In this document: in pieces, positions 2,248-63,211 of the stretch
Layout of the letters: every line of letters begins with the position of its first letter
Numbering within the stretch: position 1 is the first letter of the stretch
From: Candidatus Zhuqueibacterota bacterium
GTDB lineage: Bacteria; Zhuqueibacterota; Zhuqueibacteria; Thermofontimicrobiales; Thiofontviventaceae
Assembly (NCBI GenBank): GCA_036351795.1
Contig: JAZBPW010000114.1
Location: 647 to 64,646, forward strand
Direction of reading: 5' to 3'
Length of the DNA: 64,000 nucleotides
Translations under genes and position numbers: made by a program
The notes under the pieces: generated by a model
Database searches by the model: none
What the model was told of the DNA's origin: nothing
What the model saw: only the letters and a program-made list of their open reading frames with translations

Positions 2248-4680
2248 ATGTCAAGAACCCGTCTTCCTGTTTCTGTTTCATTCGTATTCCTCGTATCAAT
2301 AGTAATCCCGGTCATGCTCTTTTCCAAAAGCGAAGATAGCACAAAATGGTCGCAGCGATGTATCCCGTTTCCTAAAGAGATGGAAGTCTCCGGATCCATC
2401 GAGCGGACTCTTTCAGACATCACGCTCAATATTCCCGATATCCGTGATCCACGCATGGACACTGCTGTCGACATTCTATCGCTCCATGCCTGGGGTGAAT
2501 CCGGTTTCACAGTGCACCTTTTATTGAGCAGCAATGCCTCCTCGCTCCCCCCGGAACTCGTCTCCCGGCTCAAGAGTCTGCCCAACCGGGATCAGGCGTA
2601 CACGATTCAACCGGTCAGTGAAAATGGCCAGTTCACAGGGCTGATCCTTGCGGGCAACACGCCGCTGGGCCTGCTCTACGCGGCAAGAACACTCAATCAA
2701 CTGCTGTCACCAGAGACATCTTCACACATGCGCCATATTCCAGAGGTCGCCATCATAGACTGGCCCGATCTCGAAGAGCGAGGTGAATGGGGATGGAACC
2801 TTCATCACGACAGATACAGCATCGCCGAAATGAAGATGAACGAGATCGAGGTGCATTCACAGCTTGGATTCAACAGCGACGGTTCTCCCGCAGCTTCGAT
2901 CGACACGGATTTTCTCGCTTCATCGTATCGTATCGGCATTCGCGTGGTCCCGATCATCAAACATCTGGAGCAGCTCGCAAAAACGGGTCTGTTCAAATAT
3001 CATCCCGATGTCGCCGCAGTTTATGAGCCCGGCAAGGAGCTCCCATCGGATTATCAGCCCGCGCTCTGTTTTTCGAAGGACAAAACAGTAGAGTTGATCA
3101 CGGGATGGATGCGTCAGCTTCTGGCGTACGACGATGTGAAAGACATCAATGCCTGGCTGGCAGAAACGCCCGCACCCTGCTTCTGCGATCAATGCGCGGG
3201 TCAAAACTCTTTCCAAATGCAGACCGAGGCGCTGGTAAAAGCCTTCGAAGCAGTGAAAAGCGATGTTCCGGACTCACATCTGCGCATCCTTCTGAGTCAG
3301 GCGAGCTACAACGACAACGAGAGTGTGCTGAAGTCCATTGGTCCGGAGACACGCATCACCTATTATCACGGTCAGAAGACGTACGACAGCTCAACGCGCC
3401 CCATGATCGATTCTCTGCTGACCCGCTTTGCCGCCGACGGTGGCTGGCTGGGCGCCTATCCACAGTTGACCAATTCCTGGCGCACGATTTACCCCTTCAC
3501 CGGCGGTCACTTCATCAAGGCGCGCATGCGAGAATTTGTGAGCAAGGGCATGAAGAGCTTCAGCGGCTATGCCACGCCATCGAACAGCTATTACGATTTC
3601 AACATTGCTGCAGCCGCGGAATGGGCCTGGAACAGCACTGGCCGGACTGTCACTGAATTTGCCAGGGCTTACGCGCTGCGCGTCGGCATGAAGGATCCGG
3701 ATCTGTTCGCCGAATGGGCGGATATCATCGGACGCGTCGGCTGGAAGATCGCGGGCAGCCGTATCGCCGAGACCATGATCTTCGCCGCCAGCGACCAGCA
3801 GTTTGTGGACGGATTTATCGTAGACGGCTCTCTTTTCGGCAGAAATAAGCCGTTGCGATTCGGCGAGGGGATACTGTATGAGTTCGCGGATCAGGATGAT
3901 CTGCAGCAGAGCATCATCAGCGCAAAGGAGGCGTTGGACCTGGCGCGTCAGACAGAAGAGCCGCGAATGGTAACCGAATCACTGGCAGCCCTTCATACGC
4001 TGCGCTACACACGTGCGATGATGGATATCTTCGACTGCCTGTACGGCTCAGGCAATAAAAGCCGGCTTCAGGGATTACTGTTCGACATCGATGCCATCGG
4101 CAGGGATCTGACATCAGCGCTCGTCGACTGGGGCAGCGTGGTCCACCCCGCCGAACGCGAAGCCGTGCACTACCGCTATCGCGATACCGTCGACTTCCCG
4201 GCCAATATCGCTGAAAAGTTTCGGATGCTCGTAAAGGGCATGAATATCTCCGACGCAAGGTCCGAATATCGTTTCGCGCACGTCGACTCCTGGAGCGATG
4301 CGGATTTCGATACGACTTCCGAACTGACACTATGGACGGATGTGACGGAGCACATCCATGGCCAGGGAGAATATGATGTCCGGCTGGAGTTTCTCAGCGG
4401 CGCATCCGGCGTCCAACCGCAATCGGTAACGCTGGTCACCGGTCCGACCCCGTCCAGCACGCTGACGCTTTTCAGCGACAGATGGGAATCCCGGCTGAGC
4501 CGCTACGGCAGGAGCATTGAATACTGGATATCCGTGCCGGCAATGCCGAAGTCGCTGGCGTTTGGTGTGGACAGATTTTACATTGTAACCGAAATATCCG
4601 GCCCGGCAATGGATCTGCCCCCAGACCGCCGAACGACGAATGGCGCGATTTACATACGGAAGTCGTGGAGGGGGAAGTGA
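2248..4680 (+). CDS. Secreted GH20-like (hexosaminidase-type) glycoside-hydrolase candidate
   Basis: ATG at 2248 gives a signal peptide MSRTRLPVSVSFVFLVSIVIPVMLFS. The segment VAIIDWPDLEERGEWGW resembles the GH20-type domain junction. The catalytic pair was not identified, so the function is tentative. Confidence 0.5.
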   Translation: MSRTRLPVSVSFVFLVSIVIPVMLFSKSEDSTKWSQRCIPFPKEMEVSGSIERTLSDITLNIPDIRDPRMDTAVDILSLHAWGESGFTVHLLLSSNASSLPPELVSRLKSLPNRDQAYTIQPVSENGQFTGLILAGNTPLGLLYAARTLNQLLSPETSSHMRHIPEVAIIDWPDLEERGEWGWNLHHDRYSIAEMKMNEIEVHSQLGFNSDGSPAASIDTDFLASSYRIGIRVVPIIKHLEQLAKTGLFKYHPDVAAVYEPGKELPSDYQPALCFSKDKTVELITGWMRQLLAYDDVKDINAWLAETPAPCFCDQCAGQNSFQMQTEALVKAFEAVKSDVPDSHLRILLSQASYNDNESVLKSIGPETRITYYHGQKTYDSSTRPMIDSLLTRFAADGGWLGAYPQLTNSWRTIYPFTGGHFIKARMREFVSKGMKSFSGYATPSNSYYDFNIAAAAEWAWNSTGRTVTEFARAYALRVGMKDPDLFAEWADIIGRVGWKIAGSRIAETMIFAASDQQFVDGFIVDGSLFGRNKPLRFGEGILYEFADQDDLQQSIISAKEALDLARQTEEPRMVTESLAALHTLRYTRAMMDIFDCLYGSGNKSRLQGLLFDIDAIGRDLTSALVDWGSVVHPAEREAVHYRYRDTVDFPANIAEKFRMLVKGMNISDARSEYRFAHVDSWSDADFDTTSELTLWTDVTEHIHGQGEYDVRLEFLSGASGVQPQSVTLVTGPTPSSTLTLFSDRWESRLSRYGRSIEYWISVPAMPKSLAFGVDRFYIVTEISGPAMDLPPDRRTTNGAIYIRKSWRGK

Positions 4681-4927: not shown

Positions 4928-6664
4928 ATGAATAAACGGACAATTTTTCTCATCCTTTTCTCTATTTTCTCGACTATCAGCAAAGCGGAATCAGCCGAAA
5001 CACTCTACTGTTTCGATTTCGGTGGCGCCTTTCAGGACGTCGCACCCGGTTATACACCCGTGTCCCGCGTCTATCACAGCCCGAGATATCTCTGGATCGA
5101 CAATGTCCGCGAAGTGGAACGCATGGATGTGAGTGATCCGCTGAGACGCGACTTCGTCGGCGGGCCGAAAGGTGAGTTCTGGATCGGTCTTGACAACGGC
5201 GACTATCAGGTGGCGGTCATTCTCGGCGATCATCGTGAACCCAAAGGACCGTTTAACGTATATGTCCAGGAGAGCCTCGTCCGCGGTGGCATCACTCTTT
5301 CGGCAGGGGAATTCATTGAATTGACCTTTCCTGCGACTGTCGATGAGCAGCTGTTGAAAGTCACATTCATCGCGAATGACGGCGCGGAGTTCGCGGTCAA
5401 CGCTCTCGTCCTTTCAGGCGATCCAGGTAAAGCCGTCCGTCGAATTTTTGACAATGCACCTCCGGACGACCTGCCCCCGGTGGACGACGTATTCAGAAAG
5501 GGATCAACAGACACGCACACGGCACTGAAGGACATCTGTGAATGGTTCCTGTCGCATCGTCTCCCAAATGGCTTTTTAGGCGATTACGAACCCGGGGCAC
5601 GGTCCACGCAATACTACTGGTACACCACGGCATACCCCATCCGGACTCTGCTGGCCGGCTACGAAATTTTTAATGAACAACGCTATCTCGATGCTGTGGT
5701 CGGTATCATGGACGATCTGGTGGATGAACAGCTTCCCAACGGCGCCTGGCAGCAGATATTCAGGAACAAGGCGGCAAAAGACCTCACATCCGAAGAGCTC
5801 GATCATATCTATAAAAACGAATGGATGAATCTCGCGGATATCGGCAGCATTGCAACGGCTCTCGGGATCGCGGCGCATTACGCGGGACCGGAACGCAAAG
5901 CGCGATACGTGAACGCATTGAAACGCTTTTGCGAAGAGTGGGCGCTGCAATGGCAGAAGCCATCCGGTGGATTTACCAACGGTATGGAGAACGGCGAACC
6001 CAGGACAAAGATCTACAGCACGGCAACGGCCACAGAGGCTGCCGCTTTCACAGCGCTATACGCCAATACCGGAGATAGAAAACATCTGGAGGTGGCCGAA
6101 CGCGCCGCGCGATTCATGACGGAAAAATGGAATGAAGATGGGCGACCTGTGTGGCATTTTCATTATACATCCAAGGAGGGTTATATTCTCGACATGCCGA
6201 TACAATATTTCGGCGCAGCCTTCTACTACACCGACGGACTCTTCATGGTGTATCATCACACTGAAGATGAAGCGCTGCGAACGCGCATCCAGGAGGTCTA
6301 CTCCTGGTACATCAACGGCCAGGAGGGTCTGCTCGCGCATCTCGGGCAGGACTCATGGTGGGGACTGCAGGACGCGTGGAACAATTCGAAAACCGCGGGC
6401 ATACCACTGGCATGCATCAATTATCAGAGAATGACCGAGGATCACGCGGTGAACAGGTTTGTCTCTCTGGCCAAACGATTTCTCTGCACACCTGAATTTT
6501 CACAAAGACTGGGTATCATGGTCGAGGATGCGGATCTTCCATGGGGAGGGCATAGTCTGCAATCCTGGGCGGCGTGTTCGGTTTCCGCAACCGGTTTCGC
6601 GGGACTCTCCATTGCTGAGATGATCCGGCCCGGCATCATTTATATAAAGGCAACGGCGGAGTAG
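4928..6664 (+). CDS. Secreted protein: N-terminal beta-sandwich-like region plus prenyltransferase/squalene-oxidase-like alpha/alpha-toroid repeats
   Basis: Signal peptide MNKRTIFLILFSIFSTISKAES. Repeat-like motifs LPNGAWQQ and QKPSGGFTNG are typical of alpha/alpha-toroid repeat proteins. No catalytic assignment is possible. Confidence 0.55.
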   Translation: MNKRTIFLILFSIFSTISKAESAETLYCFDFGGAFQDVAPGYTPVSRVYHSPRYLWIDNVREVERMDVSDPLRRDFVGGPKGEFWIGLDNGDYQVAVILGDHREPKGPFNVYVQESLVRGGITLSAGEFIELTFPATVDEQLLKVTFIANDGAEFAVNALVLSGDPGKAVRRIFDNAPPDDLPPVDDVFRKGSTDTHTALKDICEWFLSHRLPNGFLGDYEPGARSTQYYWYTTAYPIRTLLAGYEIFNEQRYLDAVVGIMDDLVDEQLPNGAWQQIFRNKAAKDLTSEELDHIYKNEWMNLADIGSIATALGIAAHYAGPERKARYVNALKRFCEEWALQWQKPSGGFTNGMENGEPRTKIYSTATATEAAAFTALYANTGDRKHLEVAERAARFMTEKWNEDGRPVWHFHYTSKEGYILDMPIQYFGAAFYYTDGLFMVYHHTEDEALRTRIQEVYSWYINGQEGLLAHLGQDSWWGLQDAWNNSKTAGIPLACINYQRMTEDHAVNRFVSLAKRFLCTPEFSQRLGIMVEDADLPWGGHSLQSWAACSVSATGFAGLSIAEMIRPGIIYIKATAE

Positions 6665-11802: not shown

Positions 11803-13254
11803 ATGTTACGTTTCTTTTTTTCAATCCTCATCATACTGACAGCGAGTAATGCCTGTGCGCAACGCGCGTCTGAAGCCGCAATCGATATCGGGACGCGCTG
11901 GGAGCTATTCGTGGACAAATTTCTCATCGATGATATGTCCAATACAGGGTTAAAGCTACACCATCCGGAACGTCGCGACGTTGTTTTTCAGGGTGAAATG
12001 CCATGGGAGGACAATACCATGAGTTTCGTGAGAGTGCTTCGCGACGGAGAACGCGTACGGTTATACTATCGTTCCATGATGGTGGACAGAGACGATAAGC
12101 GGGTGCCCGCATACGCAATGGCGGAAAGTTACGATAATGGTCTCACTTTCAGCCGGCCGGAACTCAGCATCGTCGAATTTCAGGGTTCGAGTGCGAATAA
12201 TCTGCTCCGCATCGGCGAGGTGCCCACCATACCGCCGCCGTTCATCGATACCAATCCGGACTGTCTGCCTGAGCAGCGATACAAGGGATTGAGTGGCGAG
12301 TGGAAGATGTGTTTCGCCATGTGCTCCCCGGACGGCATTCACTGGCACAGGATGCACGAGGATACGCTGGAAATGGATGGTACATTCGATACGGTGAACA
12401 CCGCTTTCTGGGATCCACGGATCGGTGCCTATCGCTCCTTCACCCGGTACTTCGAAAATCTGAAAGAGGACTCGGACGAAGATGATGTGCTTGGTCCACA
12501 ACCCACGGTCGTGCGCGCGATACAGAGCTCCACATCAAAAGATTTCATTCACTGGACAAAGGTGATGCACCACCGCTATGCTGATGATTATCCCTTTCAG
12601 ATGTATACAAATTCGACGCAGCCGTGTCCCGGCGCGGAGCATCTCTATATCGCATTTCCGAACAGATACGTGCAGGAACGCATCGTGAAGCCGGATCACC
12701 CCTATCCCGGCATGAACGACGCCGTGTTCATGTCCAGCCGCGACTGTCTCCACTGGAAACGTTTTCCGGAGGCATGGGTGCGGCCTGGTCTGGACGACAA
12801 GAACTGGACGGACAGGAATAATTATCCGGCATGGGGTATTATAGAGACATCGCCCCTTGAATGGTCCATGTATATCAGCGAACATTACAGACACCCTGAG
12901 GTGAGACCCCGCTTGCGGCGGCTGTCCATCAGGCCGATGGGGTTTGTCTCTGTGCACGCGCAATATGAAAGAGGCGAAATGATCACCAAACCGATGATCG
13001 TGGGCGGGAATCAATTGGTGATCAACTTTTCCACGAGTGCGATCGGTTTCATTAAAGTCGAGATCATGGATGTCGACGGCGTTCCGATCGATAATTTCCG
13101 GCTGAATGACATGGCACCCATATTCGGTGATTCATTGGAGCGTATTGTAAAATGGGGTAAAAACAGCGATCTCCCGGCTCTAAAAGGAATGACAGTGCGC
13201 ATGCGATTCGTCATGAGCGACGCGGATATTTACGCGATGCGGTTCAGGGATTGA
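11803..13254 (+). CDS. Secreted hypothetical protein (beta-propeller glycosidase-like)
   Basis: Signal peptide MLRFFFSILIILTASNACAQ. W/D-rich repeated blocks suggest a propeller fold, but the function is unassigned. Confidence 0.5.
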   Translation: MLRFFFSILIILTASNACAQRASEAAIDIGTRWELFVDKFLIDDMSNTGLKLHHPERRDVVFQGEMPWEDNTMSFVRVLRDGERVRLYYRSMMVDRDDKRVPAYAMAESYDNGLTFSRPELSIVEFQGSSANNLLRIGEVPTIPPPFIDTNPDCLPEQRYKGLSGEWKMCFAMCSPDGIHWHRMHEDTLEMDGTFDTVNTAFWDPRIGAYRSFTRYFENLKEDSDEDDVLGPQPTVVRAIQSSTSKDFIHWTKVMHHRYADDYPFQMYTNSTQPCPGAEHLYIAFPNRYVQERIVKPDHPYPGMNDAVFMSSRDCLHWKRFPEAWVRPGLDDKNWTDRNNYPAWGIIETSPLEWSMYISEHYRHPEVRPRLRRLSIRPMGFVSVHAQYERGEMITKPMIVGGNQLVINFSTSAIGFIKVEIMDVDGVPIDNFRLNDMAPIFGDSLERIVKWGKNSDLPALKGMTVRMRFVMSDADIYAMRFRD

Positions 13255-49075: not shown

Positions 49076-49331
49076 GTTGATCACTCCATTTTTTCTTACT
49101 TATAAAAATCCGAATTAAGAATATAACTTTTTTCGGGCACATTGTCAATGATTTTATTGAATAATCACGGTAATGTATCAATTACTCAACATCGAAAATG
49201 GGCATTGCTCTGGCTCTATTGCAGCAAAGCCCTGACTCATAGCGAACTTCGATCGTCCAAGACGCGTAAAAGAACAGAGGATTGCCTATTGCCCAATATT
49301 CATTATGTTGAAATAGTCAACGGAGGAAAAG

Positions 49332-49676
49332 ATGCCACTGGTGTATTCAACAGGAAAAGGGGAAATATGCCCCGGCTGCGGGAAGCCTGTCGATGCCTGT
49401 ACATGCGAAAAACAAAGTACGGTCTCGTCTACTGGCGATGGTGTCGTACGCGTCAGACGCGAGGTGAAGGGACGAAAGGGGAAAACCGTAACCTCTATCT
49501 CCGGACTTGCGCTTGAACCGGATAAGTTGAGGGACTGCGCCACCGCACTGAAAAGGAAATGTGGAGCCGGGGGATCTGTCAAAGACGGTATCATTCTGAT
49601 TCAGGGCGATCATTGCAACACCATCGTCGAAGAATTGAAAAAGAACGGTTTCAATGCAAAAAGAGCAGGTGGATAA
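49332..49676 (+). CDS. yciH: SUI1/YciH-family translation initiation factor
   Basis: GGAGG lies upstream. The sequence has an N-terminal Cys pair, VRREVKGRKGKTVTSISGL and KCGAGGSVKDG..IQGDH. 114 aa. Confidence 0.85.
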   Translation: MPLVYSTGKGEICPGCGKPVDACTCEKQSTVSSTGDGVVRVRREVKGRKGKTVTSISGLALEPDKLRDCATALKRKCGAGGSVKDGIILIQGDHCNTIVEELKKNGFNAKRAGG

Positions 49677-49701
49677 TTGAGACAATCTTGATGCTATCGC
49701 A

Positions 49702-52700
49702 TTAAAACAGTGAGAGCTGTGAGTCTTCACCATCTTTTTCAGCGGTGCTTCTTTTTTTCTTCATCACATTCTTTTTATTCTCCAAGAGCTCTTCTTCGAT
49801 ATCATTTAAAAAACGTGAAGTTGGCCTTACTTCCTGTTTACCATACATGAAGCGGGTTTTCGCCAATGTGAAGATGAGCTTATGCTGGGCCCTCGTCATC
49901 CCCACATAGAAAATCCTGCGTTCCTCATGAAGCTCCTCTTCCGTGTCCTCATCCTTGATCCGGGGAAGAATTCCATCCTCACAACCGGTAATAAAGACAA
50001 CCGGAAATTCCAGTCCTTTTGAGGCATGAATACTCATCAACGTCACTCTCTCCGACCTCTCATCATATATATCTGTTTCACCCTGAAGTACTATCGATTC
50101 GAGGAATGTTTTAAGAGATCCTTTGTGAGCTTCAGCCATTCGGGATATCTCTTCCCAGTAATAAGATCTTTTGCCGTCATTTCTGTAATAGGCACTCATT
50201 CCGGAAATCTTCAACAGGTTGACGATCAGTTCTTTGGTGGACATTTTTTCAGCGTACGTCCTCAGCCGGTTTATCTTGTCAACCAGTGATGCGACCGGCT
50301 GCTGTTGAGTCGCACTCAGTGCAGATATCCGGTCCACTCTCCGAATGGCGTCCCAGAGGGAGAGGTCGTTCATGCGCTTATACTTAGACAGTATTGCTAT
50401 CGTTTGTTCTCCGATTCCCCGCGGAGGATTATTCAACACACGATAGAGATCGAAATCGATCCACGGATTCTGAATGATGCGCAAATATGAAAGAATTTCT
50501 CCCGGCTCTTTCCTCTCCCAGAAAGGCACCTCTCCAATTGACTGGTAAGGGATCCCGGACCGGATGAATGCCTCCTCCAGTGCCGGCAGTTGCGCGTGCA
50601 ATCGGTACAAGACGGCGATATCTCCAAATCCAACGCCATAGACGGTTTCATCATTTTCGGCTGCCCGTCCTGAATCGACCGAAAAGAAACTGGTTGCGCC
50701 GATCAGCTTTTCGATCCGATGAACAATCGTCTCAGCCTCCGCCTTCTCCGTTGCAGTGCGGAATATTTCAATTTTATCCTCACTGATCATATCGGTCCAA
50801 AGCTTGAGATCGCTTCTTTCTGGATTTTTTTCAATCACCTGTCCCGATGCAGACAAGATCGACCTGTCGGACCGGTAGTTCTTATCCAGAAAAACTGTTC
50901 TTGCCTCAGGGAAATCTTTTTCAAACGTCAGGAAATAGTGCGCATCCGATCCTCTGAAACCATATATCGCCTGATCCGGATCTCCGATGACGCACAGATT
51001 ACTTTCCGGAGTCACGAGCAATTTCAGGAGACTGTATTGAGGGAAATTGATATCCTGGTATTCATCAACAGAGATCCATTTATATTTCTCTCTGTATTTT
51101 TTCAGTAGATCGTCTCTTTCACGAAACAACAGAAATGGCTGCATGATGAGATCATCAAAGTCAAAGAGATTTTGTCTTCTCAGTTCTTTCTGATATAGCG
51201 CGTACAGCTCCTTGGCAGCCGCATCGAGATCAGCCTCTTCGGGAAGAAGTAAATGACTTTTTGCATCGGAGATATCCTGCATCAGCTGTTTCAACTGAGC
51301 CGTTGTCAGGTCTTTTCCAAGACGCTTCAGGATATCCTTTCTATAATTATCATTCAGTATCGAGAAACCGGTTTTATATCCGACAGCCTCATAATCGTTT
51401 TTCAGAATGGATGCACCAAACGCGTGAAAAGTCTGAATTGTCATGACATCCATCACATCGTCTTCGAAGAGCTGCCCGAGTCGCGACCGCATCTCCTGCG
51501 CCGCCTTGTTGGTGAACGTCAAGGCCAGGATCGAGGAAGGATCCACTTCTTCGTCCTGTATCAGGTAGGCGATCCTGTAGGTGAGTGTCCTGGTTTTCCC
51601 GGTCCCCGGCCCGGCAACGATCACCAGATTATGATCGACCGATGTGACTGCGCTCAGCTGCTTGTCATTCAATCCGTACGGATTCCTCTTCTCTTCCGGT
51701 AATCCGTTCGCCTTTTCCACGGGAAAAACATTGAGGATATTTTCGCGAAGGTCCGCATCTTTTACCCGATACGGCTCTCGCTTGTCCTGTTTTTCACTTT
51801 TTTTTTCCGGTATCTCTTTATCGATAAACAGGCTTTTGGTCCCGAAATTCTCGCGTTCCCTTGCTGTGAAGATCTTTATCGTGCCGAATTCACCATCGTA
51901 TCCGGCATCGATCTGCAAATCAGATTCTCGCATGCGACGTATCCCCTCTGCCAGCAAGCTTCCAGACGATTTCTCCAACTCGCTCAACGTAATGTCTCTC
52001 AGAATGTGCAACTCCGAACCCAACTGGGAGAGCATTTTTTCATATTTCTCCCGCACACCCTTTGTATTCGGACCTCTCCCCATAACCTCTGCAATGATCT
52101 CCGGAAGAGGGATAAGACTTTCGAATGGCAATGCCCGGAGGCTCTTTTCGCCGGGTTTACGATCCGCAAGCTCTTCGATCCGGTAAGAGACTCCGCGTGT
52201 CACATCTTTCCCGCAGACAGGGCATTTCCCATTGTGCGCGAGCGTCTCTTCAGGTGACATACGCGCCTCACATTTTCGATGACCGTCGTAATGATATTTA
52301 CCCTCCTCGGGAAAGAATTCGATCGTTCCACCGAACTTTTCCGGTGCACCAGTCTTCATCGCATCCAGCATCGCGGGAAAGGACATGTCACAGAGAAAGA
52401 TATTTGATTCCCGTGCGAGTTTCTGGGGAGAGTGCGCGTCGGAGTTCGAGACGAGGGTATATTTATCCAAACTTGACACCCGCCAATTCATCGGGGGATC
52501 CGATGACAGACCCGTTTCCACTGCAAAGATGTGCTCACTCAGATCATCATAGCATTCCTCGATCGAATCAAAACCGGACTTCGAACCCATTGCCGAAAAC
52601 CACGGGGTCCAGATATGCGCGGGGATCAGCGCCGATCCGTCCCCGGCTTCCAATACGATTTCCAGAAGATCTCTGGAATCCAACCCAAGAATGGGCCGGC

Positions 52701-53106
52701 CATCCGAGCGGATATTGCCGATTTTATCGAGTCTTCCCTGAATATCCTTTGCCGCGTCAAAAGAGGGCACAATAACCACATTGTGTACTTTTCTGACCTT
52801 TTCACCCTTCTTGTATATGTTGCTGATCTCCGTAGAAAGGATGAATCGGACCGGATTTTCACAGGATTTGAAGACTTCATCCTGAGTAGCCTTCCTGAAA
52901 TCGGGTTTAAGTTTGAAGAGACCATCCTCAGCCGGCTCAAGCTTTTCCATCAGTTCGTCCAGCCATTCCGGATGCGTGAAATCGCCTGTTGCCACGACCT
53001 GAACACCCTTCAACTGCGCCCACTTATTCAGATGTTCGAGATTCAGTTGCTTACTCGTCGCCCTCGAGTAGTGAGAATGTATATGTAAATCAGCAATGAA
53101 AGTCAT
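49702..53106 (-). CDS. Fusion protein: N-terminal endonuclease-Q-like PHP nuclease (~aa 1-420) + C-terminal UvrD/PcrA-type SF1 helicase
   Basis: The N-terminal part has ADLHIHSHYS, PAHIWTPW, SNSDAHSP and the zinc knuckle HRKC...CPVCGK..GVSYRIEELA, collinear with Pyrococcus EndoQ. The helicase part has AGPGTGKT, DEYQD, GDPDQAIYGFRG, NYRS, IHASKGLEFP and YVGMTRA. Confidence 0.88.
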   Translation of the reverse strand: MTFIADLHIHSHYSRATSKQLNLEHLNKWAQLKGVQVVATGDFTHPEWLDELMEKLEPAEDGLFKLKPDFRKATQDEVFKSCENPVRFILSTEISNIYKKGEKVRKVHNVVIVPSFDAAKDIQGRLDKIGNIRSDGRPILGLDSRDLLEIVLEAGDGSALIPAHIWTPWFSAMGSKSGFDSIEECYDDLSEHIFAVETGLSSDPPMNWRVSSLDKYTLVSNSDAHSPQKLARESNIFLCDMSFPAMLDAMKTGAPEKFGGTIEFFPEEGKYHYDGHRKCEARMSPEETLAHNGKCPVCGKDVTRGVSYRIEELADRKPGEKSLRALPFESLIPLPEIIAEVMGRGPNTKGVREKYEKMLSQLGSELHILRDITLSELEKSSGSLLAEGIRRMRESDLQIDAGYDGEFGTIKIFTARERENFGTKSLFIDKEIPEKKSEKQDKREPYRVKDADLRENILNVFPVEKANGLPEEKRNPYGLNDKQLSAVTSVDHNLVIVAGPGTGKTRTLTYRIAYLIQDEEVDPSSILALTFTNKAAQEMRSRLGQLFEDDVMDVMTIQTFHAFGASILKNDYEAVGYKTGFSILNDNYRKDILKRLGKDLTTAQLKQLMQDISDAKSHLLLPEEADLDAAAKELYALYQKELRRQNLFDFDDLIMQPFLLFRERDDLLKKYREKYKWISVDEYQDINFPQYSLLKLLVTPESNLCVIGDPDQAIYGFRGSDAHYFLTFEKDFPEARTVFLDKNYRSDRSILSASGQVIEKNPERSDLKLWTDMISEDKIEIFRTATEKAEAETIVHRIEKLIGATSFFSVDSGRAAENDETVYGVGFGDIAVLYRLHAQLPALEEAFIRSGIPYQSIGEVPFWERKEPGEILSYLRIIQNPWIDFDLYRVLNNPPRGIGEQTIAILSKYKRMNDLSLWDAIRRVDRISALSATQQQPVASLVDKINRLRTYAEKMSTKELIVNLLKISGMSAYYRNDGKRSYYWEEISRMAEAHKGSLKTFLESIVLQGETDIYDERSERVTLMSIHASKGLEFPVVFITGCEDGILPRIKDEDTEEELHEERRIFYVGMTRAQHKLIFTLAKTRFMYGKQEVRPTSRFLNDIEEELLENKKNVMKKKRSTAEKDGEDSQLSLF

Positions 53107-53978
53107 TACGCGTTATCTCCTGCGTCCTTCATCTTGTCTGCAAATTCTATCGCTTCGAACCGGTTGAATCCATTATCGATTGCGAGCTGCTTCCAGTCCG
53201 GTTTCTCCGGCAGTTTGTTCAGCAATTCCATAATCAGCCTCGTCTCTTGTCTGGAAAATTGCATCGCATAAGCGACATAATCGAGAAAGGCCTCCCACGT
53301 TATTGGTACGATCTCTTTGACGATACTTGCAATGGCTTCTGCAAAAACGCGGATCTCATACTGCGCGTGGCGATCGATTCGCAAATGGATGAAGTGCAGC
53401 AGATTCGCGAGATCGATTTTCCAATACCATTCGGTATAGAGTGAAAGCGGAAGATGGATGCGCGCCAGTTCTCTTGCGATATTACTGTTTTCCATCTCCT
53501 CGTAGTCGGTCCATGATTCCTGTGCATGTTTCGTGAGAATGTCGAGTACGCGTTCTCTGAGTTCCTCTGGAACGGAGTCATCCGATCGTCCCTGCTTGTT
53601 GCTGCTGGATTGATAATTGATCGCATCGGGTTCAGGTATGTAGAAATGATCTATTGCTTTGGAATATCGCAGCGAATATTCATTGACACTCGCCGTCCGG
53701 TGACGAATCCACTGTCTGGCCACAAAGATAGGCATTTTACAATGGAACTTGAACTCGACCATCTCGAACGGGCTGGTATGCCTGTGTCGCAGCAGATACC
53801 GTATCAGTCCCCTGTCCTCGCGCACCTTCTTTGTCCCTTTCCCGTATGAGACCCGGGCTGCCTGAACAATGGCCCCATCGGAGCCCATGTAATCCACCAG
53901 CCGGACAAATCCATGGTCCAGACACTGTATCTCTTTATTCAATAACGCTTCCGCCGCTCTGTTCAGCTCACCCGACAT
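53106..53978 (-). CDS. thyX: Flavin-dependent thymidylate synthase ThyX
   Basis: ThyX signature RHRTASVNEYSLRYS plus RHRHTSPFE. The stop TAA shares one nucleotide with the downstream ATG (TAATG at 53108-53104). Confidence 0.9.
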   Translation of the reverse strand: MSGELNRAAEALLNKEIQCLDHGFVRLVDYMGSDGAIVQAARVSYGKGTKKVREDRGLIRYLLRHRHTSPFEMVEFKFHCKMPIFVARQWIRHRTASVNEYSLRYSKAIDHFYIPEPDAINYQSSSNKQGRSDDSVPEELRERVLDILTKHAQESWTDYEEMENSNIARELARIHLPLSLYTEWYWKIDLANLLHFIHLRIDRHAQYEIRVFAEAIASIVKEIVPITWEAFLDYVAYAMQFSRQETRLIMELLNKLPEKPDWKQLAIDNGFNRFEAIEFADKMKDAGDNA

Positions 53979-54085
53979 ATTTTCTCCTGATCGTTAGGTT
54001 GCATCGCAGACCGCTTCTTTGCCATCAACAAACCGGTCCTGGTAAAAAGCAATATAAAAAAAAGTCAAATACCAATCAAGGAATT

Positions 54086-54868
54086 TTACAGCCAATCTAT
54101 TTGAAGCTGCTCTTCCGGAGTGTACAATCGTCTGTACAGCAGGAAAAGCGTCATCATGCACGAGACAGTTACCGAGGCAGCAAGCATGTACATGATAATG
54201 ATTTGGTAGCGGACAGACTGCTCCGGTGCAACGCCGCCAATGATCTGTCCGGTCATCATACCCGGCAGCTGCACGATCCCTACCACCATCATCGCATTGA
54301 TCGTGGGCATCATCGCCGCACGGGCCGCTTCACGCAGCAACGGAATGATCGATTGAAATGGACTCGCACCGAGCGCCAGGGCAGCCTCAACTTCAGTCCG
54401 CCTGCTCCGCGCCTCACTAACCAGGCGATCCACTGAAAGCGCTGCGGCATTCATTGCATTTCCGAGCATCATACCACATAGCGGGACCAGGTATTGCGGT
54501 TCGTACCACAACGGCGCACGAAGAATGATCAACATCAACGGTAACACCGTTATCACGGCGCCTGTAAAAATAGAGACCGTAATGATCGGAAAAAGTCCGG
54601 AGATTTTCACATTCTGACGCTTCACCGCATTGTATCCGGCGATCAAGGTCATGACAATAATCAAAAAAAGCACGAAATACCATTTTCGCACATTGAAGAT
54701 AAACTTCAACACATATCCGATCATTAACAGCTGCGTAAATGTTCGGAACGTGCCAATCAATATGTCCCTGGCGATTCCGAGCCTGGATTGGAGCGAAATT
54801 GCCACGGGGATCATGATAAATATGAGTGCGATCGCGACATCCGTATAGTCCAGTGAAATATAATTCAT
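54086..54868 (-). CDS. fetB: ABC transporter permease, UPF0014/FetB (YbbM)-like
   Basis: 260 aa, polytopic. The size and N-terminal pattern match the FetB family. ATGA-type 4-nt overlap with the upstream ATPase gene. Confidence 0.65.
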   Translation of the reverse strand: MNYISLDYTDVAIALIFIMIPVAISLQSRLGIARDILIGTFRTFTQLLMIGYVLKFIFNVRKWYFVLFLIIVMTLIAGYNAVKRQNVKISGLFPIITVSIFTGAVITVLPLMLIILRAPLWYEPQYLVPLCGMMLGNAMNAAALSVDRLVSEARSRRTEVEAALALGASPFQSIIPLLREAARAAMMPTINAMMVVGIVQLPGMMTGQIIGGVAPEQSVRYQIIIMYMLAASVTVSCMMTLFLLYRRLYTPEEQLQIDWL

Positions 54869-55611
54869 ATCTCAAGCTCCCCGCTGATAAAACGTCGCCC
54901 TGTATCTGTCTGCGGATATTTGAAAAAAGAGTCCGCAGGGCCATGTTCGATGATCATACCATTTACGAGCAGACATACGGTGTCGGCAATGTACTCCGCG
55001 TGTTGAAGTATATGCGTGACAATAATAATGGAAAGATGCAATTCCTTATTGATTTTTTTCACCATATTGAGGAGATTCTTGGATGATGACGGGTCGAGAG
55101 CAGATGTCGGCTCATCGAGAAGAAGGACATCTGGATCATTGGCGAGCGCACGGGCCAGGGCAATGCGTTGCTGCTGTCCCACTGAGAGTGACTGCACATC
55201 CCTGGCTGTTTCGATGCTTTCGAGCCCGACCGATTGCATCAGCGACGCAATCACGGAATCAGGCAGATCCCTCTTCAACAATCGGGGACCAAACAGTAAA
55301 TTGTCTTTCACCGTCCCCCTGAACAGAGCCGGTACCTGAAACACCATGGACACTTTCTGCCGTAATTCCCTGGGAACAATTGTCGATATGTCCTGACCAT
55401 TCATGAAGATACGCCCCTCATCCGGACTCTCCAGACGATTCAGCAATCTCAGAAGCGTTGTCTTGCCGCTTCCGGATGGTCCCAGGATCACCTGGATACC
55501 GTCGCCACACGAATCATAACAGAGATCTCTTAAAATGGTTCTCTTTTCTTCTCCGCCATTCGCGTTCCGGCAGCATTTAAATTTGCTGACATGATTCAGT
55601 GAAAATATCAT
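54865..55611 (-). CDS. fetA: ABC transporter ATP-binding protein, FetA (YbbL)-like
   Basis: Walker A GPSGSGKTT, signature LSVGQQQR, Walker B LLLDEPTSALD. Confidence 0.7.
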   Translation of the reverse strand: MIFSLNHVSKFKCCRNANGGEEKRTILRDLCYDSCGDGIQVILGPSGSGKTTLLRLLNRLESPDEGRIFMNGQDISTIVPRELRQKVSMVFQVPALFRGTVKDNLLFGPRLLKRDLPDSVIASLMQSVGLESIETARDVQSLSVGQQQRIALARALANDPDVLLLDEPTSALDPSSSKNLLNMVKKINKELHLSIIIVTHILQHAEYIADTVCLLVNGMIIEHGPADSFFKYPQTDTGRRFISGELEI

Positions 55612-55836
55612 GTTCTTTTCTCGAGCGTGTTCTTCATTTTGACATATAGGGTAAACGGTTAACGGGATCGTTGTATTCGGCTATTCTTGAATATAGCATG
55701 TCAGCGAATGACAAACAACCAATTAATGCGAAACTGCCCGAATCCTGTCGTTTTCGTCACAACCTGGTAGCGTCGATTGGGGACATGCAATAACGGGGAA
55801 AGCACCTGACGTGAAACAGCTTCTGCCATATATAAA

Positions 55837-55868
55837 AGCCAGAACCGGTGCTTCTGCCGGCTCTGGCT
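55837..55868 (-). terminator. Intrinsic terminator after the malectin-repeat gene
   Basis: 11 of 12 bp stem AGCCAGAACCGG/CCGGCTCTGGCT. On the minus strand it is followed by TTTATATAT. Confidence 0.7.
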
Positions 55869-55894
55869 TTGATGAAAACGTATAGTTTTTTCAA

Positions 55895-58624
55895 TCACTT
55901 CAGCAGCAGCATTTTCCTTGAATCAACGTAGGGTGAATAGTCGCTGCTGTGTGGATTGACATATATGCGATAGACGTAAAAACCACTCGCGACCGGGACA
56001 TGATACATATCGAGCCCGTTCCAGTCCGTGTGATGATATCCGGCCTCTCTTACACCATCGAACAGCACCACTTTCCTCTGCCCCATCAGATTGTATATCT
56101 CCAGAATGACATCCGATTCAACGGGCAATCCGAATGAAATATTGGTGCTCATATTGAAAGGATTCGGATAATTCTGATTGAGATGAAAATGATCGGGTAT
56201 CAATCCACTTCCCGTGGCGTCAAAGGTCGATGGATCGCTCTCCATGGCCACAATACCATTGTTGCCGAGTACTTCAATGGCGGATATTTTCGGATCCTCC
56301 AGTCCCCGAACAAAATCGATGTTCAATTGATTGTCCAGAACCGAAACCTGAAATGTCATCGACATGGCAGCTTTTTTACCGACTTCGGCAAATATGTCCA
56401 GGTCCTGAATGACCGGGTCACCCTCAATAGTCACCCCAAAAACACGCCGGCCAGCCTCTTTAACATAAATTTCAGCGAAATGCAGCACCACCTCGTAGTT
56501 ACCGTTCGGTGCATCGAAGAGATAGCTTTCCATTCCCCAACGCTCGGTTCGATACAACAGGTCCTCACGTGTATCGGAAATCGGCAACCTGGTTGAATAT
56601 GTTTCTCCGCCGATATATCCCCAACTTTCAGGCGAATATGGCTTGTCTGCTTCCCAGACCTGGTCGTCCGAATCGATGTGCTGTTCACCGCCCGCATTCA
56701 CTCGCATGGTATAATTGGTGACCATACCCACCTGGTAAGAGACAGGAATCTCTGCATTGCCTCCATTAGACATGATCATCAATTTCGCCTCATAGATGCC
56801 ATCCACCAGCGATACTGATGAAACGGAAAGGGTAATACTGTCCGATTCATTATAGGCGAGCGCTCCGGAATCAGGATCCAACGGATTCAGCCAGGCGACT
56901 TCAGGGGACTGAATCTCCCATATCAATTCACCGGCGCCCATATTCGCCATGATTACATTTGCTTCGGTATTATCTTCACCGAAATAGATCATATTTGGCT
57001 GAACGCTCAGGAAGGGCTCATCCGGTATCTTGAACAATTCGACAGCACTGATTTGAGGAACACCGGCTACCGGTACAAACGAAATATCGATCGCACCATC
57101 TTCGACTTCGATATCGCATGCTTTCACGATGGCGTTCTGCGGATCTGTCTCCGCATTCACATCGAAATTTTCAAGTACGAGACTGTCTTCGACCAGCACA
57201 TGAAAAATCCGCTGCTCCGGTTCGGTGAGTTCCGATTCGGCAAAATGCAAACTGACGTGATAGAAGCCATTTTCCTGTACGGCAAATTGATAATTCGTCA
57301 TCTCCGTACACACATCCTGATAGAGTGCATCATCAAATGTATTGATGATATCAAGAGTGTATGCCGTGGAATACCCATCCGAAAATCCGATGTCCGCGAA
57401 CCAGAGATTATCCGCAATATCGACATAATCCTCGCCACCGCAATTCACTCTCAACGGAGCATTGGCATCATCGAGAGTGAGCTTCAGATTTTCATTATCT
57501 CCATTGGTGATGATTTCGAGAACTGCCTCATCCGGTCCCGCCGCCTGATTTCTGTCGACAGTCACTGTAACGGTTTGCGACTCATCCACGGACAGGACGC
57601 CGTCAGATGGTTCAACACCCATTACCCAGGGTATGTCGTCCGCATTTGCGGCGCTCCAGTCAAGTGGCGCTGTACCGACATTCTTCACCACGAAATGCCT
57701 CTTCGTGAGCAATGAACCGAAAGCGAGTTCGGCCGGATCGATCTCCGGAATCGGAAAATCGTTTTCCACCTGCATGATGACTTTAATATTTTTGTTTCCA
57801 CCGTTTGATTGAATCGAGACCTTTCCCTCGTAATCTCCCTCCGTAAGTCCGGAACGGCTCACCTTGATTTCGATTTGCTGCGGTTCGTTTTGAAGCAGTG
57901 TGCCGTTAGCCGGTAAAACGCTCTTAATCCAGGGTTCATCCGGATCTTCGAAAAGATTCCAGATCAACGGCTTGGCGCCACCGTTTTTAATTTCGAAAAA
58001 TCTGCTGAATGTCTTTTTGCCGAGTTTCAATTCGGTCTTATCAATCCATAATTTCGGCTCTTGCGATCCCTGTTCTTCAACACTGATCGCTTTGACATTG
58101 GAGTGGGCGATGGATATACCTGGCGCCGTGTAAATAGTTTCGAAGAAAATGTCCAGACGTCCGTCGTTCACAGTCACCTGGAATGTGCGATCGATGGCGC
58201 GGGCGAATCCCGCTGTCGCGAACATGTCAAAATCTTGCATGACTCGTTTCCCCTCGATACTCACATGAAATATCCGCTGTCCCACTTTTTTGTAATAGAG
58301 TTCTGCAAACTTCAACTGGACGACATAGTTTCCATTCGGTACGGTGAAACGGTAAAAGTCCAGTGCATTGCGCTCAGCCTGATAAAGCGGATCATCCACC
58401 GTACCCTTAATCGAATATGGATATATCAGTGAATACCCGCCATTGACATGTCCCCAACTTCCCGGACGATATTTTTGATCGCTGGACCAGTCATTGCCAA
58501 AGCGGTCTCTGTAGGCTCCTCCTCCACAGTTCACTCTGATCACTGTCTGTGCAATCGCACTCGAAGTCAGTATCAGTGCCAATACTGAAAGCATAATCAG
58601 CAATTTAAATTTTGAACGATTCAT
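55895..58624 (-). CDS. Secreted protein with three malectin-like carbohydrate-binding domains, Ig-like spacers and T9SS CTD
   Basis: ATG at 58624 preceded by a G-rich SD gives MNRSKFKLLIMLSVLALILTSSAIAQ. There are three RVNCGG/RVNAGG...LY..ER...Y.F..PNG.Y.V.LHFAE...RIF.V.IEG units. The CTD reads LNQNYPNPFNMSTNISF..LEIYNLMGQ..RKMLLLK. Confidence 0.8.
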   Translation of the reverse strand: MNRSKFKLLIMLSVLALILTSSAIAQTVIRVNCGGGAYRDRFGNDWSSDQKYRPGSWGHVNGGYSLIYPYSIKGTVDDPLYQAERNALDFYRFTVPNGNYVVQLKFAELYYKKVGQRIFHVSIEGKRVMQDFDMFATAGFARAIDRTFQVTVNDGRLDIFFETIYTAPGISIAHSNVKAISVEEQGSQEPKLWIDKTELKLGKKTFSRFFEIKNGGAKPLIWNLFEDPDEPWIKSVLPANGTLLQNEPQQIEIKVSRSGLTEGDYEGKVSIQSNGGNKNIKVIMQVENDFPIPEIDPAELAFGSLLTKRHFVVKNVGTAPLDWSAANADDIPWVMGVEPSDGVLSVDESQTVTVTVDRNQAAGPDEAVLEIITNGDNENLKLTLDDANAPLRVNCGGEDYVDIADNLWFADIGFSDGYSTAYTLDIINTFDDALYQDVCTEMTNYQFAVQENGFYHVSLHFAESELTEPEQRIFHVLVEDSLVLENFDVNAETDPQNAIVKACDIEVEDGAIDISFVPVAGVPQISAVELFKIPDEPFLSVQPNMIYFGEDNTEANVIMANMGAGELIWEIQSPEVAWLNPLDPDSGALAYNESDSITLSVSSVSLVDGIYEAKLMIMSNGGNAEIPVSYQVGMVTNYTMRVNAGGEQHIDSDDQVWEADKPYSPESWGYIGGETYSTRLPISDTREDLLYRTERWGMESYLFDAPNGNYEVVLHFAEIYVKEAGRRVFGVTIEGDPVIQDLDIFAEVGKKAAMSMTFQVSVLDNQLNIDFVRGLEDPKISAIEVLGNNGIVAMESDPSTFDATGSGLIPDHFHLNQNYPNPFNMSTNISFGLPVESDVILEIYNLMGQRKVVLFDGVREAGYHHTDWNGLDMYHVPVASGFYVYRIYVNPHSSDYSPYVDSRKMLLLK

Positions 58625-61503: not shown

Positions 61504-62607
61504 TCACATACTATAGCTTGTCGCCAGCGCTTTCTCCCGCTCATGCCTTTCGATGGCAAGCTGAATGAGCCTGTCGATCAATTCGGTATAGGAAATCCCG
61601 CTTGCGTCCCACAATTTCGGGTACATGCTTATCTTCGTAAATCCGGGTATTGTATTGATCTCATTCACGATAACATTGTTTTCTTCAGTGAGGAAAAAAT
61701 CGACTCTCGCCATCCCTTCGCAGCAGAGTACTGTGAAAGCGCGTAGTGCAAGGTTCTGGATCAATACAACCAGCTCATCACTCAGTTTTGCAGGTATTTG
61801 CAGTGTGGCGCCCTTCTCATCGATATATTTTGCTTCGTATGAATAAAATTCATGTTGCGGCATCACTTCCCCGGGCACAGAGGCGATCGGATTCTGATTT
61901 CCGAGCACCGAGCACTCAATTTCCCTGCCTGCGATGCTTTCTTCGATCAAAATTTTGGTGTCGAAACGGAACGCTTCATTCACCGCATCTTCAAATTCGG
62001 CAGCCGATTTCACTTTGCTGATACCAACCGATGAACCCAGGTTTGCCGGTTTGACGAACAGCGGAGTACCAAGCATTCCCGTAACATCCTCGTAATCGAT
62101 AACTGACTTTTCCGAATATCTGTATGCGAGAAAATTGGCGATCGGGAGCCCTGCATCACGCAGAAGCCTTTTCATCACATCCTTGTCCATTCCGACGGCA
62201 GAGCCGAGCACGCCGGCACCTACAAAGGGTATATCCGTTAATTTCAACAGCCCCTGAACAGTGCCATCTTCGCCATACGTCCCGTGGAGTACCGGAAAGA
62301 TGACATCGATTCCGCACTCCGGCTTCCCATTTGTCACATTGATCAGGCGATCCTCCCTGTCCCCCTGTATCAATGCGATCTCTTCCGTGGATCTGGACAG
62401 CTTCACGAGCTTCGGATTATCCGCATTCAGGAGAAAACGGGATGCATCATTGAGGTACCATTTCCCGCTTTTATCGATCCCGATCAGCACGATCTCGTAT
62501 TTTCCCTTATCGATGGCTTCCACGACATTTTTCGCGGATTGCAAAGAGACTTCATGTTCAGCAGATTTTCCCCCGAATAGTATACCGACTCTGATCTTGT
62601 CAGTCAT
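61504..62607 (-). CDS. ddl: D-alanine--D-alanine ligase (housekeeping)
   Basis: IRVGILFGGKSAEHEVSLQSA, HGTYGEDGTVQGLL, and ARVDFFLTEENNVIVNEINTIPGFT. 367 aa. Confidence 0.9.
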   Translation of the reverse strand: MTDKIRVGILFGGKSAEHEVSLQSAKNVVEAIDKGKYEIVLIGIDKSGKWYLNDASRFLLNADNPKLVKLSRSTEEIALIQGDREDRLINVTNGKPECGIDVIFPVLHGTYGEDGTVQGLLKLTDIPFVGAGVLGSAVGMDKDVMKRLLRDAGLPIANFLAYRYSEKSVIDYEDVTGMLGTPLFVKPANLGSSVGISKVKSAAEFEDAVNEAFRFDTKILIEESIAGREIECSVLGNQNPIASVPGEVMPQHEFYSYEAKYIDEKGATLQIPAKLSDELVVLIQNLALRAFTVLCCEGMARVDFFLTEENNVIVNEINTIPGFTKISMYPKLWDASGISYTELIDRLIQLAIERHEREKALATSYSM

Positions 62608-63211
62608 CAGATTTCCCCTGCTTCATGAGTTCCGCGTAACGCGGACTATTTCGGAACCAATGAAGCGCAATGAGCGTTTTGGCATCGTGTATCAGCCCGT
62701 TATCAAGCCGGTGATATGCTTCATGAAAGGTCAACTCAATAACCCGCAAATCTTCCAGTTCCGCCTCCACGCCGCCACCCTCAGTGATCTTACAATCATC
62801 GGAAACCTCGGCGCAGTAGAGGTAAATCAGCTCAGAGCTGCCACCGGGCGATGCGTAGAATGACTGGATCTCGTTGGCATCCTCGATTTCGTATCCAACC
62901 TCCTCGAGGATCTCTCGCGTAACTGTCTCCACCGGAGATTCGCCGGGATCTACTGTGCCGGCGACAACTTCAACGAGCCATCCTCTGGACGGGTCACCGA
63001 CATAAGCAGGATAGCGAAATTGTTCGGTCAGGATGATGGTTTTTTTTTCAGGATTGATCAGAAGAACAGCAACAGCATTCCCCCTCTGCATGCACAGACG
63101 CTCTGTCTCGCGGGAGATCGTGCCGTCATACTTTTCAAATTGCAGCACGGCACGATCCACCTTGAAAAATCCGTCGAAAACACGGTCGACTTTTTTTATA
63201 ATGACTTTCAT
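62600..63211 (-). CDS. NUDIX hydrolase (nucleoside-diphosphate-sugar pyrophosphatase-like)
   Basis: Nudix box GTVDPGESPVETVTREILEEVGY. 8-nt overlap with the ddl start. Confidence 0.8.
   Translation of the reverse strand: MKVIIKKVDRVFDGFFKVDRAVLQFEKYDGTISRETERLCMQRGNAVAVLLINPEKKTIILTEQFRYPAYVGDPSRGWLVEVVAGTVDPGESPVETVTREILEEVGYEIEDANEIQSFYASPGGSSELIYLYCAEVSDDCKITEGGGVEAELEDLRVIELTFHEAYHRLDNGLIHDAKTLIALHWFRNSPRYAELMKQGKSDD

Follow-up and report, generated by a model that had tools for sequence, protein, structure and literature searches.

A clamp-motif-bearing fusion of endonuclease Q and a UvrD-type helicase, predicted to act in the repair of base lesions, in Zhuqueibacterota and many other bacteria

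Most accounts of endonuclease Q (EndoQ) describe an archaeal enzyme with few bacterial representatives. Here, we describe a gene that joins an EndoQ module to a UvrD/PcrA-type helicase in a 64 000-nucleotide (nt) stretch of a Candidatus Zhuqueibacterota genome (assembly GCA_036351795.1, contig JAZBPW010000114.1, positions 647–64 646 of the forward strand), which we refer to as the window and in whose numbering positions are given. The EndoQ of Pyrococcus furiosus (PfuEndoQ; PDB entries 5zb8 and 7k30-33) shares with this fusion the PHP, zinc-binding and helical layout, the metal ligands, the lesion pocket and a clamp-docking peptide at the end of the module, but it is a protein of ~424 amino acids (aa) that has no helicase, docks on PCNA through a PIP (PCNA-interacting protein) box and carries a four-cysteine (C4) zinc site, whereas the fusion has a QLxLF motif and an H-C-C-C site. 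After EndoQ has cut 5' of a lesion, the downstream strand carries the damaged nucleotide at its 5' end, and in one branch of the scheme drawn in the original paper the damaged segment is taken off by 'helicase activity' (PMC4357722). In Thermococcales the C-terminal PIP box binds PCNA with a dissociation constant (KD) of 55 nM, and ring-shaped PCNA stimulates EndoQ (PMC4858679).

In bacteria, Bacillus pumilus EndoQ has been reported to nick at deoxyuridine (dU), deoxyinosine (dI) and apurinic/apyrimidinic (AP) sites (PMC8438529); it represents, with B. subtilis EndoQ, the short bacterial form (PMC5961232) and, going by the published description, is a stand-alone nuclease without a helicase, unlike the fusion. 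EndoQ proteins have been sorted into three families 'based on the domain organization' (PMC5961232). Shiraishi et al. (2016; PMC4858679) noted that bacterial EndoQ homologs bear C-terminal sequence motifs for binding the β sliding clamp, and their Supplementary Fig. S1 places these at positions 1004–1244 in Geobacter, Desulfobulbus, Desulfovibrio, Spirochaeta, Treponema, Bilophila and Clostridiales and also tabulates short homologs with motifs at about 413–430. The long homologs in that figure resemble the fusion in size (~1000–1240 aa), in their C-terminal QL[DS]LF-like motif and in coming from the same phyla as the relatives reported below; the table leaves the extra domain unnamed, and its members were not assayed. 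The first-pass annotation of the window, a model's reading of the sequence alone, regarded the fused architecture as experimentally uncharacterized. This view holds for biochemistry, as we found none in the open literature on an EndoQ–helicase or EndoQ–UvrD fusion, but it did not take account of the long clamp-motif homologs tabulated in 2016 (PMC4858679), owing to which the window gene is not the first of its kind but a KSB1 addition to a group that is known to specialists from alignments and was never characterized. Besides this KSB1 member and its overlap with thyX, the present analysis adds the size of the family, the finding that both active sites are invariant, a second, internal clamp motif, a split form in Omnitrophota and the finding that the coupling to thyX is local. 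One of the families drawn up by Shiraishi and co-workers in 2017 is said to be the helicase-fused form.

The gene encodes a long-form bacterial EndoQ followed by a linker, a UvrD/PcrA-type core of helicase superfamily 1A (SF1A) and a predicted β-clamp motif, and its product probably repairs uracil, hypoxanthine and abasic sites by nicking and unwinding DNA while tethered to the clamp. The single open reading frame (ORF) of 1134 aa given by the first-pass annotation is borne out by the ORF listing and by the domain matches. Its parts are as follows.

49702..53106, minus strand: ORF of the EndoQ–UvrD/PcrA fusion in the ORF listing of the window, 1134 aa; stop codon at 49702–49704.
51838..53106, minus strand: EndoQ module, aa 1–423, with PHP catalytic, Zn-binding and C-terminal helical domains.
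52213..52281, minus strand: zinc knuckle, aa 276–298, H276-x2-C279 ... C295-x2-C298.
51826..51840, minus strand: degenerate internal clamp-motif position TKSLF, aa 423–427, directly after the EndoQ module.
51685..51837, minus strand: flexible linker, aa 424–474, predicted to be disordered, with a predicted local distance difference test score (pLDDT) of <50.
49759..51684, minus strand: SF1A UvrD/PcrA helicase core, aa 475–1116, with Walker A GTGKT 501–505, DEYQD 681–685, R745 and R1072.
49705..49719, minus strand: predicted β-sliding-clamp-binding motif QLSLF, aa 1130–1134, closing a disordered tail rich in Lys and Asp (aa 1117–1134).

Residues 4–412 of the EndoQ module are collinear with PfuEndoQ 4–382 (5zb8/7k30; E = 2e-53, ~36% identity over 374 aligned positions), and in a profile search residues 5–410 span positions 2–374 of the 374 in TIGR00375 (E = 4e-52); homologs also bear PF27218 (MJ0043_C). 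The alignment to PfuEndoQ assigns the metal ligands as H8, H10, E93, H108, H164 and D223, plus H225, the PfuEndoQ ligands being H8, H10, E76, H84, H139 and D193 (+H195) (PMC5961232). They are kept in 118–120 of 120 homologs, a count that, like the other counts out of 120 and the statements of invariance, rests on a MAFFT alignment of the best 120 full-length homologs. The pocket that accommodates the deaminated base in PfuEndoQ (H139, T142, E167, G169, L170, S171, N191 and D193), together with the proposed wedge Trp144 (PMC5961232; PMC8307549), is formed by the same residues in the fusion (H164, T167, E197, G199, L200, S201, N221 and D223, with W169), all of which are invariant. The sole systematic difference among the mapped residues is the first zinc ligand, which is His276 in place of Pfu Cys249. 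The PfuEndoQ site is C4 (C249, C252, C268 and C271), and the H-C-C-C site of the fusion (H276, C279, C295 and C298), with its four ligand-competent residues, is likewise invariant and by sequence is a subfamily variant. Incision of DNA 5' of dU, dI, deoxyxanthosine and AP sites, as expected of an EndoQ, is predicted for the protein.

The helicase module aligns over residues 479–1111 with residues 12–649 of the 724 of PcrA (1pjr; E = 7e-120), and UvrD and Rep also align; the Pfam matches are UvrD-helicase (1.5e-81) and UvrD_C (6.3e-55). All helicase motifs and the four subdomains 1A, 1B, 2A and 2B are present, and the motif residues that were checked are invariant in the 120 homologs. By family membership, the module is predicted to translocate 3'-to-5' and to unwind DNA from a nick in an ATP-dependent manner. 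An AlphaFold2 model of the fusion built on 63 homologs displays two confident bodies (residues 1–423 and 475–1116) separated by the low-confidence linker (424–474), which differs in length and sequence among homologs, and followed by the tail (1117–1134; pLDDT <50). In Foldseek comparisons, the modelled EndoQ body matches PfuEndoQ with template-modelling (TM) scores of 0.86–0.87 (0.87 for 5zb8), and the helicase body matches DNA-bound UvrD (2is6) and PcrA (3pjr) with TM scores of 0.84–0.87. The fusion resembles PcrA, UvrD and Rep (1pjr, 3pjr, 2is6 and 1uaa) in motifs, subdomains and fold, and it departs from them in scoring below the equivalog cut-offs, in missing the last ~75 PcrA residues and in having gained an N-terminal nuclease and a clamp motif. 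The AddA/RecB, AdnAB and GajB-type systems also combine an SF1 helicase with a nuclease in one polypeptide or system; however, their nucleases are of the PD-(D/E)xK or Toprim/OLD type, are C-terminal or supplied in trans and act on DNA ends, whereas that of the fusion is an N-terminal PHP-type nickase with predicted lesion specificity; the likeness is limited to the helicase.

All of the motifs previously quoted for the protein were located in it, namely DLHIHSHYS (6–14), PAHIWTPW (162–169), SNSDAHS (220–226), HRKC (276–279), CPVCG (295–299), GTGKT (501–505), DEYQD (681–685), NYRS (743–746) and YVGMTRA (1067–1073); what that inventory overlooked are the conserved β-clamp motifs. The protein ends in ...DSQLSLF, and QLxLF/QLSLF is the bacterial β-clamp-binding consensus, typically C-terminal in clamp clients (PMC4549789). 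A motif of the type Q-[LMI]-x-[LM]-F forms the extreme C-terminus of 101 of the 120 homologs and falls inside the last 14 residues in 111, and a C-terminal clamp motif is found in 58/65 complete full-length fusions of the fetched loci and in 99/128 long cluster representatives (both sets are defined below). The background is low: among 673 complete neighbouring ORFs, three have the relaxed motif near the end and none has the strict terminal motif. In most homologs a second motif, Q-L-x-[FL]-F (QLGFF, for instance), comes directly behind the EndoQ module; 79 of the 120 match the strict pattern Q[LMIVF]x[LMIVF][FLMWY] there, and in the split genes of Omnitrophota, described below, the EndoQ ORF terminates in this very motif. 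The recurrence of these motifs leads us to predict that the fusion binds the β-clamp. In many homologs of the KSB1/Zhuqueibacterota type (P0011–P0035) there is, in addition, a conserved mid-linker motif resembling QLSIIKD or QLSLVRD at about residues 440–455 of the window protein, where the counterpart has decayed to PYRVKD (51742–51789); by its sequence this peptide may be a third clamp- or partner-binding site.

The fused architecture is common. A protein search gave at least 120 full-length homologs of 1049–1174 aa with 49–62% identity and an equal domain set, drawn from KSB1, Zhuqueibacterota, Anaerolineae and Chloroflexota. A scan of a one-genome-per-species collection with the EndoQ-module alignment as query yielded at least 577 confirmed EndoQ-module stretches, the best 80 of which, with up to 8 kb fetched on either side, make up our cross-phylum locus set; they include Caldilineaceae/Anaerolineae, Desulfobacterales, Omnitrophota, Spirochaetia, Gemmatimonadota, Latescibacterota, Hydrogenedentes, Cloacimonas, Aminicenantes, Bacteroidota, Myxococcales and Planctomycetota, among others. 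Searched exhaustively by HMMER, the EndoQ module matched 1080 clusters (50% identity) at E <= 1e-30; among the best 150 of the cluster representatives 128 are of at least 950 aa and one is of less than 500 aa. A helicase-fused EndoQ is therefore common in Chloroflexota, Desulfobacterota, Spirochaetota, Omnitrophota, KSB1 and other phyla, with at least 577 species-level stretches and more than 1000 clusters at 50% identity, and a more informative name than the current annotation, 'UvrD-helicase domain-containing protein', is justified.

In 74 of these 80 loci, the EndoQ module is followed directly by the helicase module; three of the remaining six are broken by contig ends and three hold EndoQ-only genes. 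A frameshift or assembly artefact, for which two uncoupled ORFs in relatives had been named beforehand as the sign, can be rejected, since hundreds of independent genomes carry a single fused ORF. By sequence, the fusion is old and under selection. Across phyla, in the same 80 loci, the EndoQ module is better conserved (55–66% identity) than the helicase (32–49%), which suggests that the nuclease is the functional core. In four Omnitrophota genomes, EndoQ and helicase are encoded by separate, adjacent and co-oriented ORFs, a natural split that also argues against the pairing being an assembly artefact.

L006:8001–12180: Omnitrophota, split genes.
L017:7947–10920: Omnitrophota, split genes.
L032:8001–10974: Omnitrophota, split genes.
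L035:7989–10953: Omnitrophota, split genes.

The EndoQ ORFs of these pairs are of 427–447 aa; the helicase ORFs are of 508–554 aa in three genomes, where part of the 2B region is missing, and of 661 aa in L006. Both ORFs of each pair end in a QLxLF-type motif of their own and, because each half does so, the fused protein gives the impression of two clamp clients joined end to end. In L006 the two genes are separated by an ORF of 291 aa, whose hydrophobic N-terminus suggests a secreted or outer-membrane protein. The EndoQ-only genes, which encode proteins of 415–458 aa, are the following.

L047:8001–9353: EndoQ-only gene.
L079:8001–9374: EndoQ-only gene.
L073:8001–9245: EndoQ-only gene.

All three lack both a helicase downstream and a C-terminal clamp motif. 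The fused genes of Desulfobacterales are divergently adjacent to gyrB-dnaN and two small conserved ORFs (L033:1445–4016 and 11–16 further loci, depending on the gene); L047 and L079 keep this dnaN-gyrB synteny, which suggests that the helicase was lost secondarily. One of the two small ORFs is weakly RdgC-like (PF04381, E = 8.5e-5, below the cut-off), and the arrangement sets a clamp-motif protein beside the clamp gene.

In the mechanism that we favour, the β-clamp would hold the protein on DNA through the C-terminal QLSLF, and in most homologs the second motif behind the EndoQ module could also bind; tethering of this kind would direct the enzyme to DNA that is newly replicated or marked by a clamp. 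The EndoQ module would flip out a dU, dI or abasic site and cut the phosphodiester bond on its 5' side. The helicase, moving 3'-to-5', would then load at the nick on the intact strand, travel towards and past the lesion and displace the lesion-bearing strand as a 5' flap or gap, leaving polymerase, flap nuclease and ligase to complete repair. An alternative-excision (nucleotide-incision) pathway would thus be contained in a single polypeptide with a chromosomal housekeeping function and, by analogy with the published EndoQ scheme, the fusion would integrate the helicase-removal step into the same protein. The clamp tail and the dnaN-gyrB synteny fit replication-linked repair. A nick-and-unwind role, which the first-pass annotation had also put forward, is the most economical reading of a conserved architecture with both active sites intact; the general tie to thyX that accompanied it does not stand, as described below.

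Several points weigh against this mechanism. The EndoQ module scores 177.8 bits against TIGR00375, under the curated cut-off of 326.6, which would make the fused clade a divergent subfamily whose specificity could differ, although TIGR00375 is a 'hypothetical equivalog' model that appears to be tuned to the short form. The first Zn ligand of the window protein is His rather than Cys; the internal clamp motif has decayed to TKSLF, leaving one canonical motif; and the helicase is without the PcrA/UvrD C-terminal extension, the polarity of its loading at an EndoQ nick being an inference only. Moreover, we found no biochemistry on any fused member in the searchable open literature, and our view of ung, nfi and a separate uvrD or pcrA is limited to 64 kb of the source genome.

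A more ambitious form of the proposal is tentative and, on balance, doubtful: the protein might be a self-contained excision machine that rides the β-clamp, possibly linked to replication, that uses the clamp dimer as a tool-belt and that serves as a major route of uracil and hypoxanthine removal in many uncultivated phyla. A tool-belt for nuclease and helicase would be provided by the two motifs of a fusion or, where the genes are split, by the one motif of each protein. Fused, split and stand-alone variants with one or two clamp motifs make up a natural series for studying how, in alternative excision repair, incision passes to removal of the strand, a step that awaits an explanation for archaeal EndoQ too, and the fusion is a tractable biochemical target rather than a surprise.

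The gene upstream of the fusion suggests another reading, in which the EndoQ–helicase is functionally and stoichiometrically coupled to ThyX as a uracil-control module, with the dUTP/dTTP balance and uracil excision co-regulated. The features concerned are these.

53106..53978, minus strand: thyX, flavin-dependent thymidylate synthase, 290 aa (Pfam Thy1 6.5e-59; TIGR02170 4.4e-64).
53104..53120, minus strand: thyX/fusion junction, with GGAGA at 53120–53116, a 9-nt spacer and TAATG at 53108–53104.

The identity of ThyX is clear, with scores above the curated cut-offs (PF02511, 199 bits against 24.8; TIGR02170, 215.9 bits against 87.9) and the RHRx7S motif readable in the translation as RHRTASVNEYS. 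Reading of the minus strand (...GGAGATAACGCGTAATGACT) bears out the TAATG overlap claimed by the first-pass annotation, with the thyX TAA (53108–53106) and the fusion ATG (53106–53104) having one base, A53106, in common. The called ATG is supported by the homologs, which start M-x-F-[IV]-A-D-[LV]-H at the same position. Together with GGAGA 9 nt upstream, the one-base overlap may well give translational coupling in the source organism. A promoter and terminator scan of 49200–56000 gave counts equal to the shuffle expectation, and no RNA runs with related sequence were found, only three DNA metagenome runs.

The adjacency does not extend far. Using tblastn (E <= 1e-5), thyX was found within 8 kb in none of the 80 cross-phylum loci. 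Nine closer relatives were examined (L081/L082 and L083–L090). In three of these thyX is directly upstream of the fusion, namely L081/L082 (61% identity, 67-nt gap), L083 (62%, 193 nt) and L089 (57%, 85 nt); in L084 it is 3 kb upstream with a restriction-modification cassette between; and in the other five, L090 (61% identity), L088 (59%), L085 (55%), L086 (53%) and L087 (51%), it is absent from this position. The TAATG overlap was not seen in any relative with an adjacent thyX, where the gaps are 67, 85 and 193 nt. A 62-aa ORF ending 2 nt ahead of the fusion in L088 was considered as a thyX C-terminus and rejected on inspection. The L084 insert (L084:1117–3961) consists of an N6_N4_Mtase, NmeDI_C and HinfI cassette and a DUF2905 gene, and shows that the junction tolerates insertions. 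The thyX-bearing relatives share with the window, in full, the syntenic block Malectin-ABC-UPF0014-thyX-fusion-SUI1-PFK-TPR-S8 peptidase, so that the adjacency looks like the inherited gene order of one sub-lineage.

Thymidylate synthesis appears near the gene a second time. In ten Desulfobacterales loci a methanogen-type, ThyA-like thymidylate synthase gene lies 4–5 kb from the EndoQ(–helicase) gene.

L047:3046–3834, minus strand: ThyA-like gene; also present in L036, L055, L060, L068, L072, L074, L075, L077 and L079.

It matches TIGR03283 (6e-28, below the cut-off) and, weakly, thymidylate synthases in the PDB (4e-7). That thymidylate synthases of two unrelated kinds occur close to the gene, each in a different phylum, is more than would be expected by chance, in a test made post hoc, and this second, independent co-localization may hint at a loose co-regulation of dTMP supply with uracil excision. 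However, the ThyA-like gene is upstream of the EndoQ gene on the opposite strand, behind dnaN-gyrB, and is therefore not operonic with the fusion. The neighbourhood survey for dut and ung that had been proposed earlier found neither, nor nfi, near any copy in the window or in 90 loci, using approximate E. coli probes that would miss divergent uracil-DNA glycosylase families. Thus, stoichiometric coupling to thyX as a general property is not sustained, and conservation of the adjacency, which had been set beforehand as one of the deciding points, breaks down outside the nearest KSB1 sub-lineage. We consider a ThyX-coupled module unlikely; the overlap is lineage-specific synteny that reflects, at most, local co-expression in the source organism, and it should not be propagated as a functional link.

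It is slightly less likely still that the protein is mainly a general UvrD/PcrA helicase, acting in nucleotide excision repair, mismatch repair, replication–transcription conflicts or RecA removal, with the nuclease as an accessory. The gene is single-copy and in housekeeping contexts, as such a helicase might be, and its C-terminal two-thirds match PcrA, UvrD and Rep best (590, 477–486 and 482 bits, respectively). These scores are far under the corresponding equivalog cut-offs of 911, 1144 and 951 and the alignment ends at PcrA residue 649 of 724, from which we take the module to be UvrD-like and not an ortholog of PcrA or UvrD. In place of the PcrA/UvrD C-terminal extension there is the clamp motif. 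The relative conservation of the two modules also runs the wrong way, with EndoQ the better conserved, and in Omnitrophota the helicase is shortened and yet still lies beside EndoQ.

An anti-phage or anti-foreign-DNA system that destroys uracil-containing or modified invading DNA, which the first-pass annotation had offered as a more speculative alternative, is very improbable. A review holds that bacterial EndoQ may act antivirally and that Ugi does not inhibit it (PMC8307549), and a restriction-modification cassette adjoins the fusion in L084. PADLOC matches the helicase part to GajB and to helicase models of the DRT class at 333–339 bits; however, this is generic UvrD-type similarity, weaker than the 590 bits for PcrA, and PADLOC has no match to the EndoQ module. 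The partner genes required by these systems were unmatched, no GajA-like or other defence partner was found near the fusion, and no recurrent defence neighbour was seen in 90 loci. Clustering of 863 ORFs from 91 loci revealed no neighbour family common to several phyla; synteny was confined to the level of lineages. The window itself is ordinary chromosomal DNA, in which the fusion is flanked by thyX, UPF0014, an ABC ATPase, SUI1 and PFK, and the clamp tail and dnaN-gyrB synteny again favour replication-linked repair. A defence role is therefore unlikely and the suggestion is not borne out.

The PHP domains of PolX and Pol III have phosphoesterase- or exonuclease-type activities. That the PHP module of the fusion is likewise a general 3'-phosphoesterase or exonuclease tidying DNA ends for the helicase, rather than lesion-specific, would agree with the low TIGR00375 score and the Cys-to-His change in the Zn site, but is scarcely credible given that all three EndoQ domains are present, beyond PHP alone, and that the lesion pocket and wedge Trp169 are invariant and the same as in PfuEndoQ.

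The remainder of the window encodes SecDF, an amidase, a rhomboid protease, a sigma-70 factor, an aminotransferase, an S8 peptidase, PFK, SUI1, the ABC/UPF0014 pair, a sigma-54 activator, MscS, Ddl, a NUDIX hydrolase, IleRS and sodium:solute symporters, together with several secreted proteins with Por_Secre_tail sorting domains (PF18962). The NUDIX hydrolase gene (62600–63211, minus strand) is beside ddl, ~9 kb from thyX. Three large ORFs on the plus strand have no Pfam match at E <= 1e-5 (2167–4680, 4928–6664 and 11803–13254; 837, 578 and 483 aa, respectively); they sit amid sodium:solute symporter and glycoside-hydrolase-like genes, possibly a polysaccharide-utilization cluster. On the other side of the fusion from thyX, a gene for an SUI1/YciH-type translation factor (49332–49676, plus strand) is convergent with it. 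No terminator-like hairpin was found in the 25 nt between the two stop codons, and the same convergent arrangement is present in L089.

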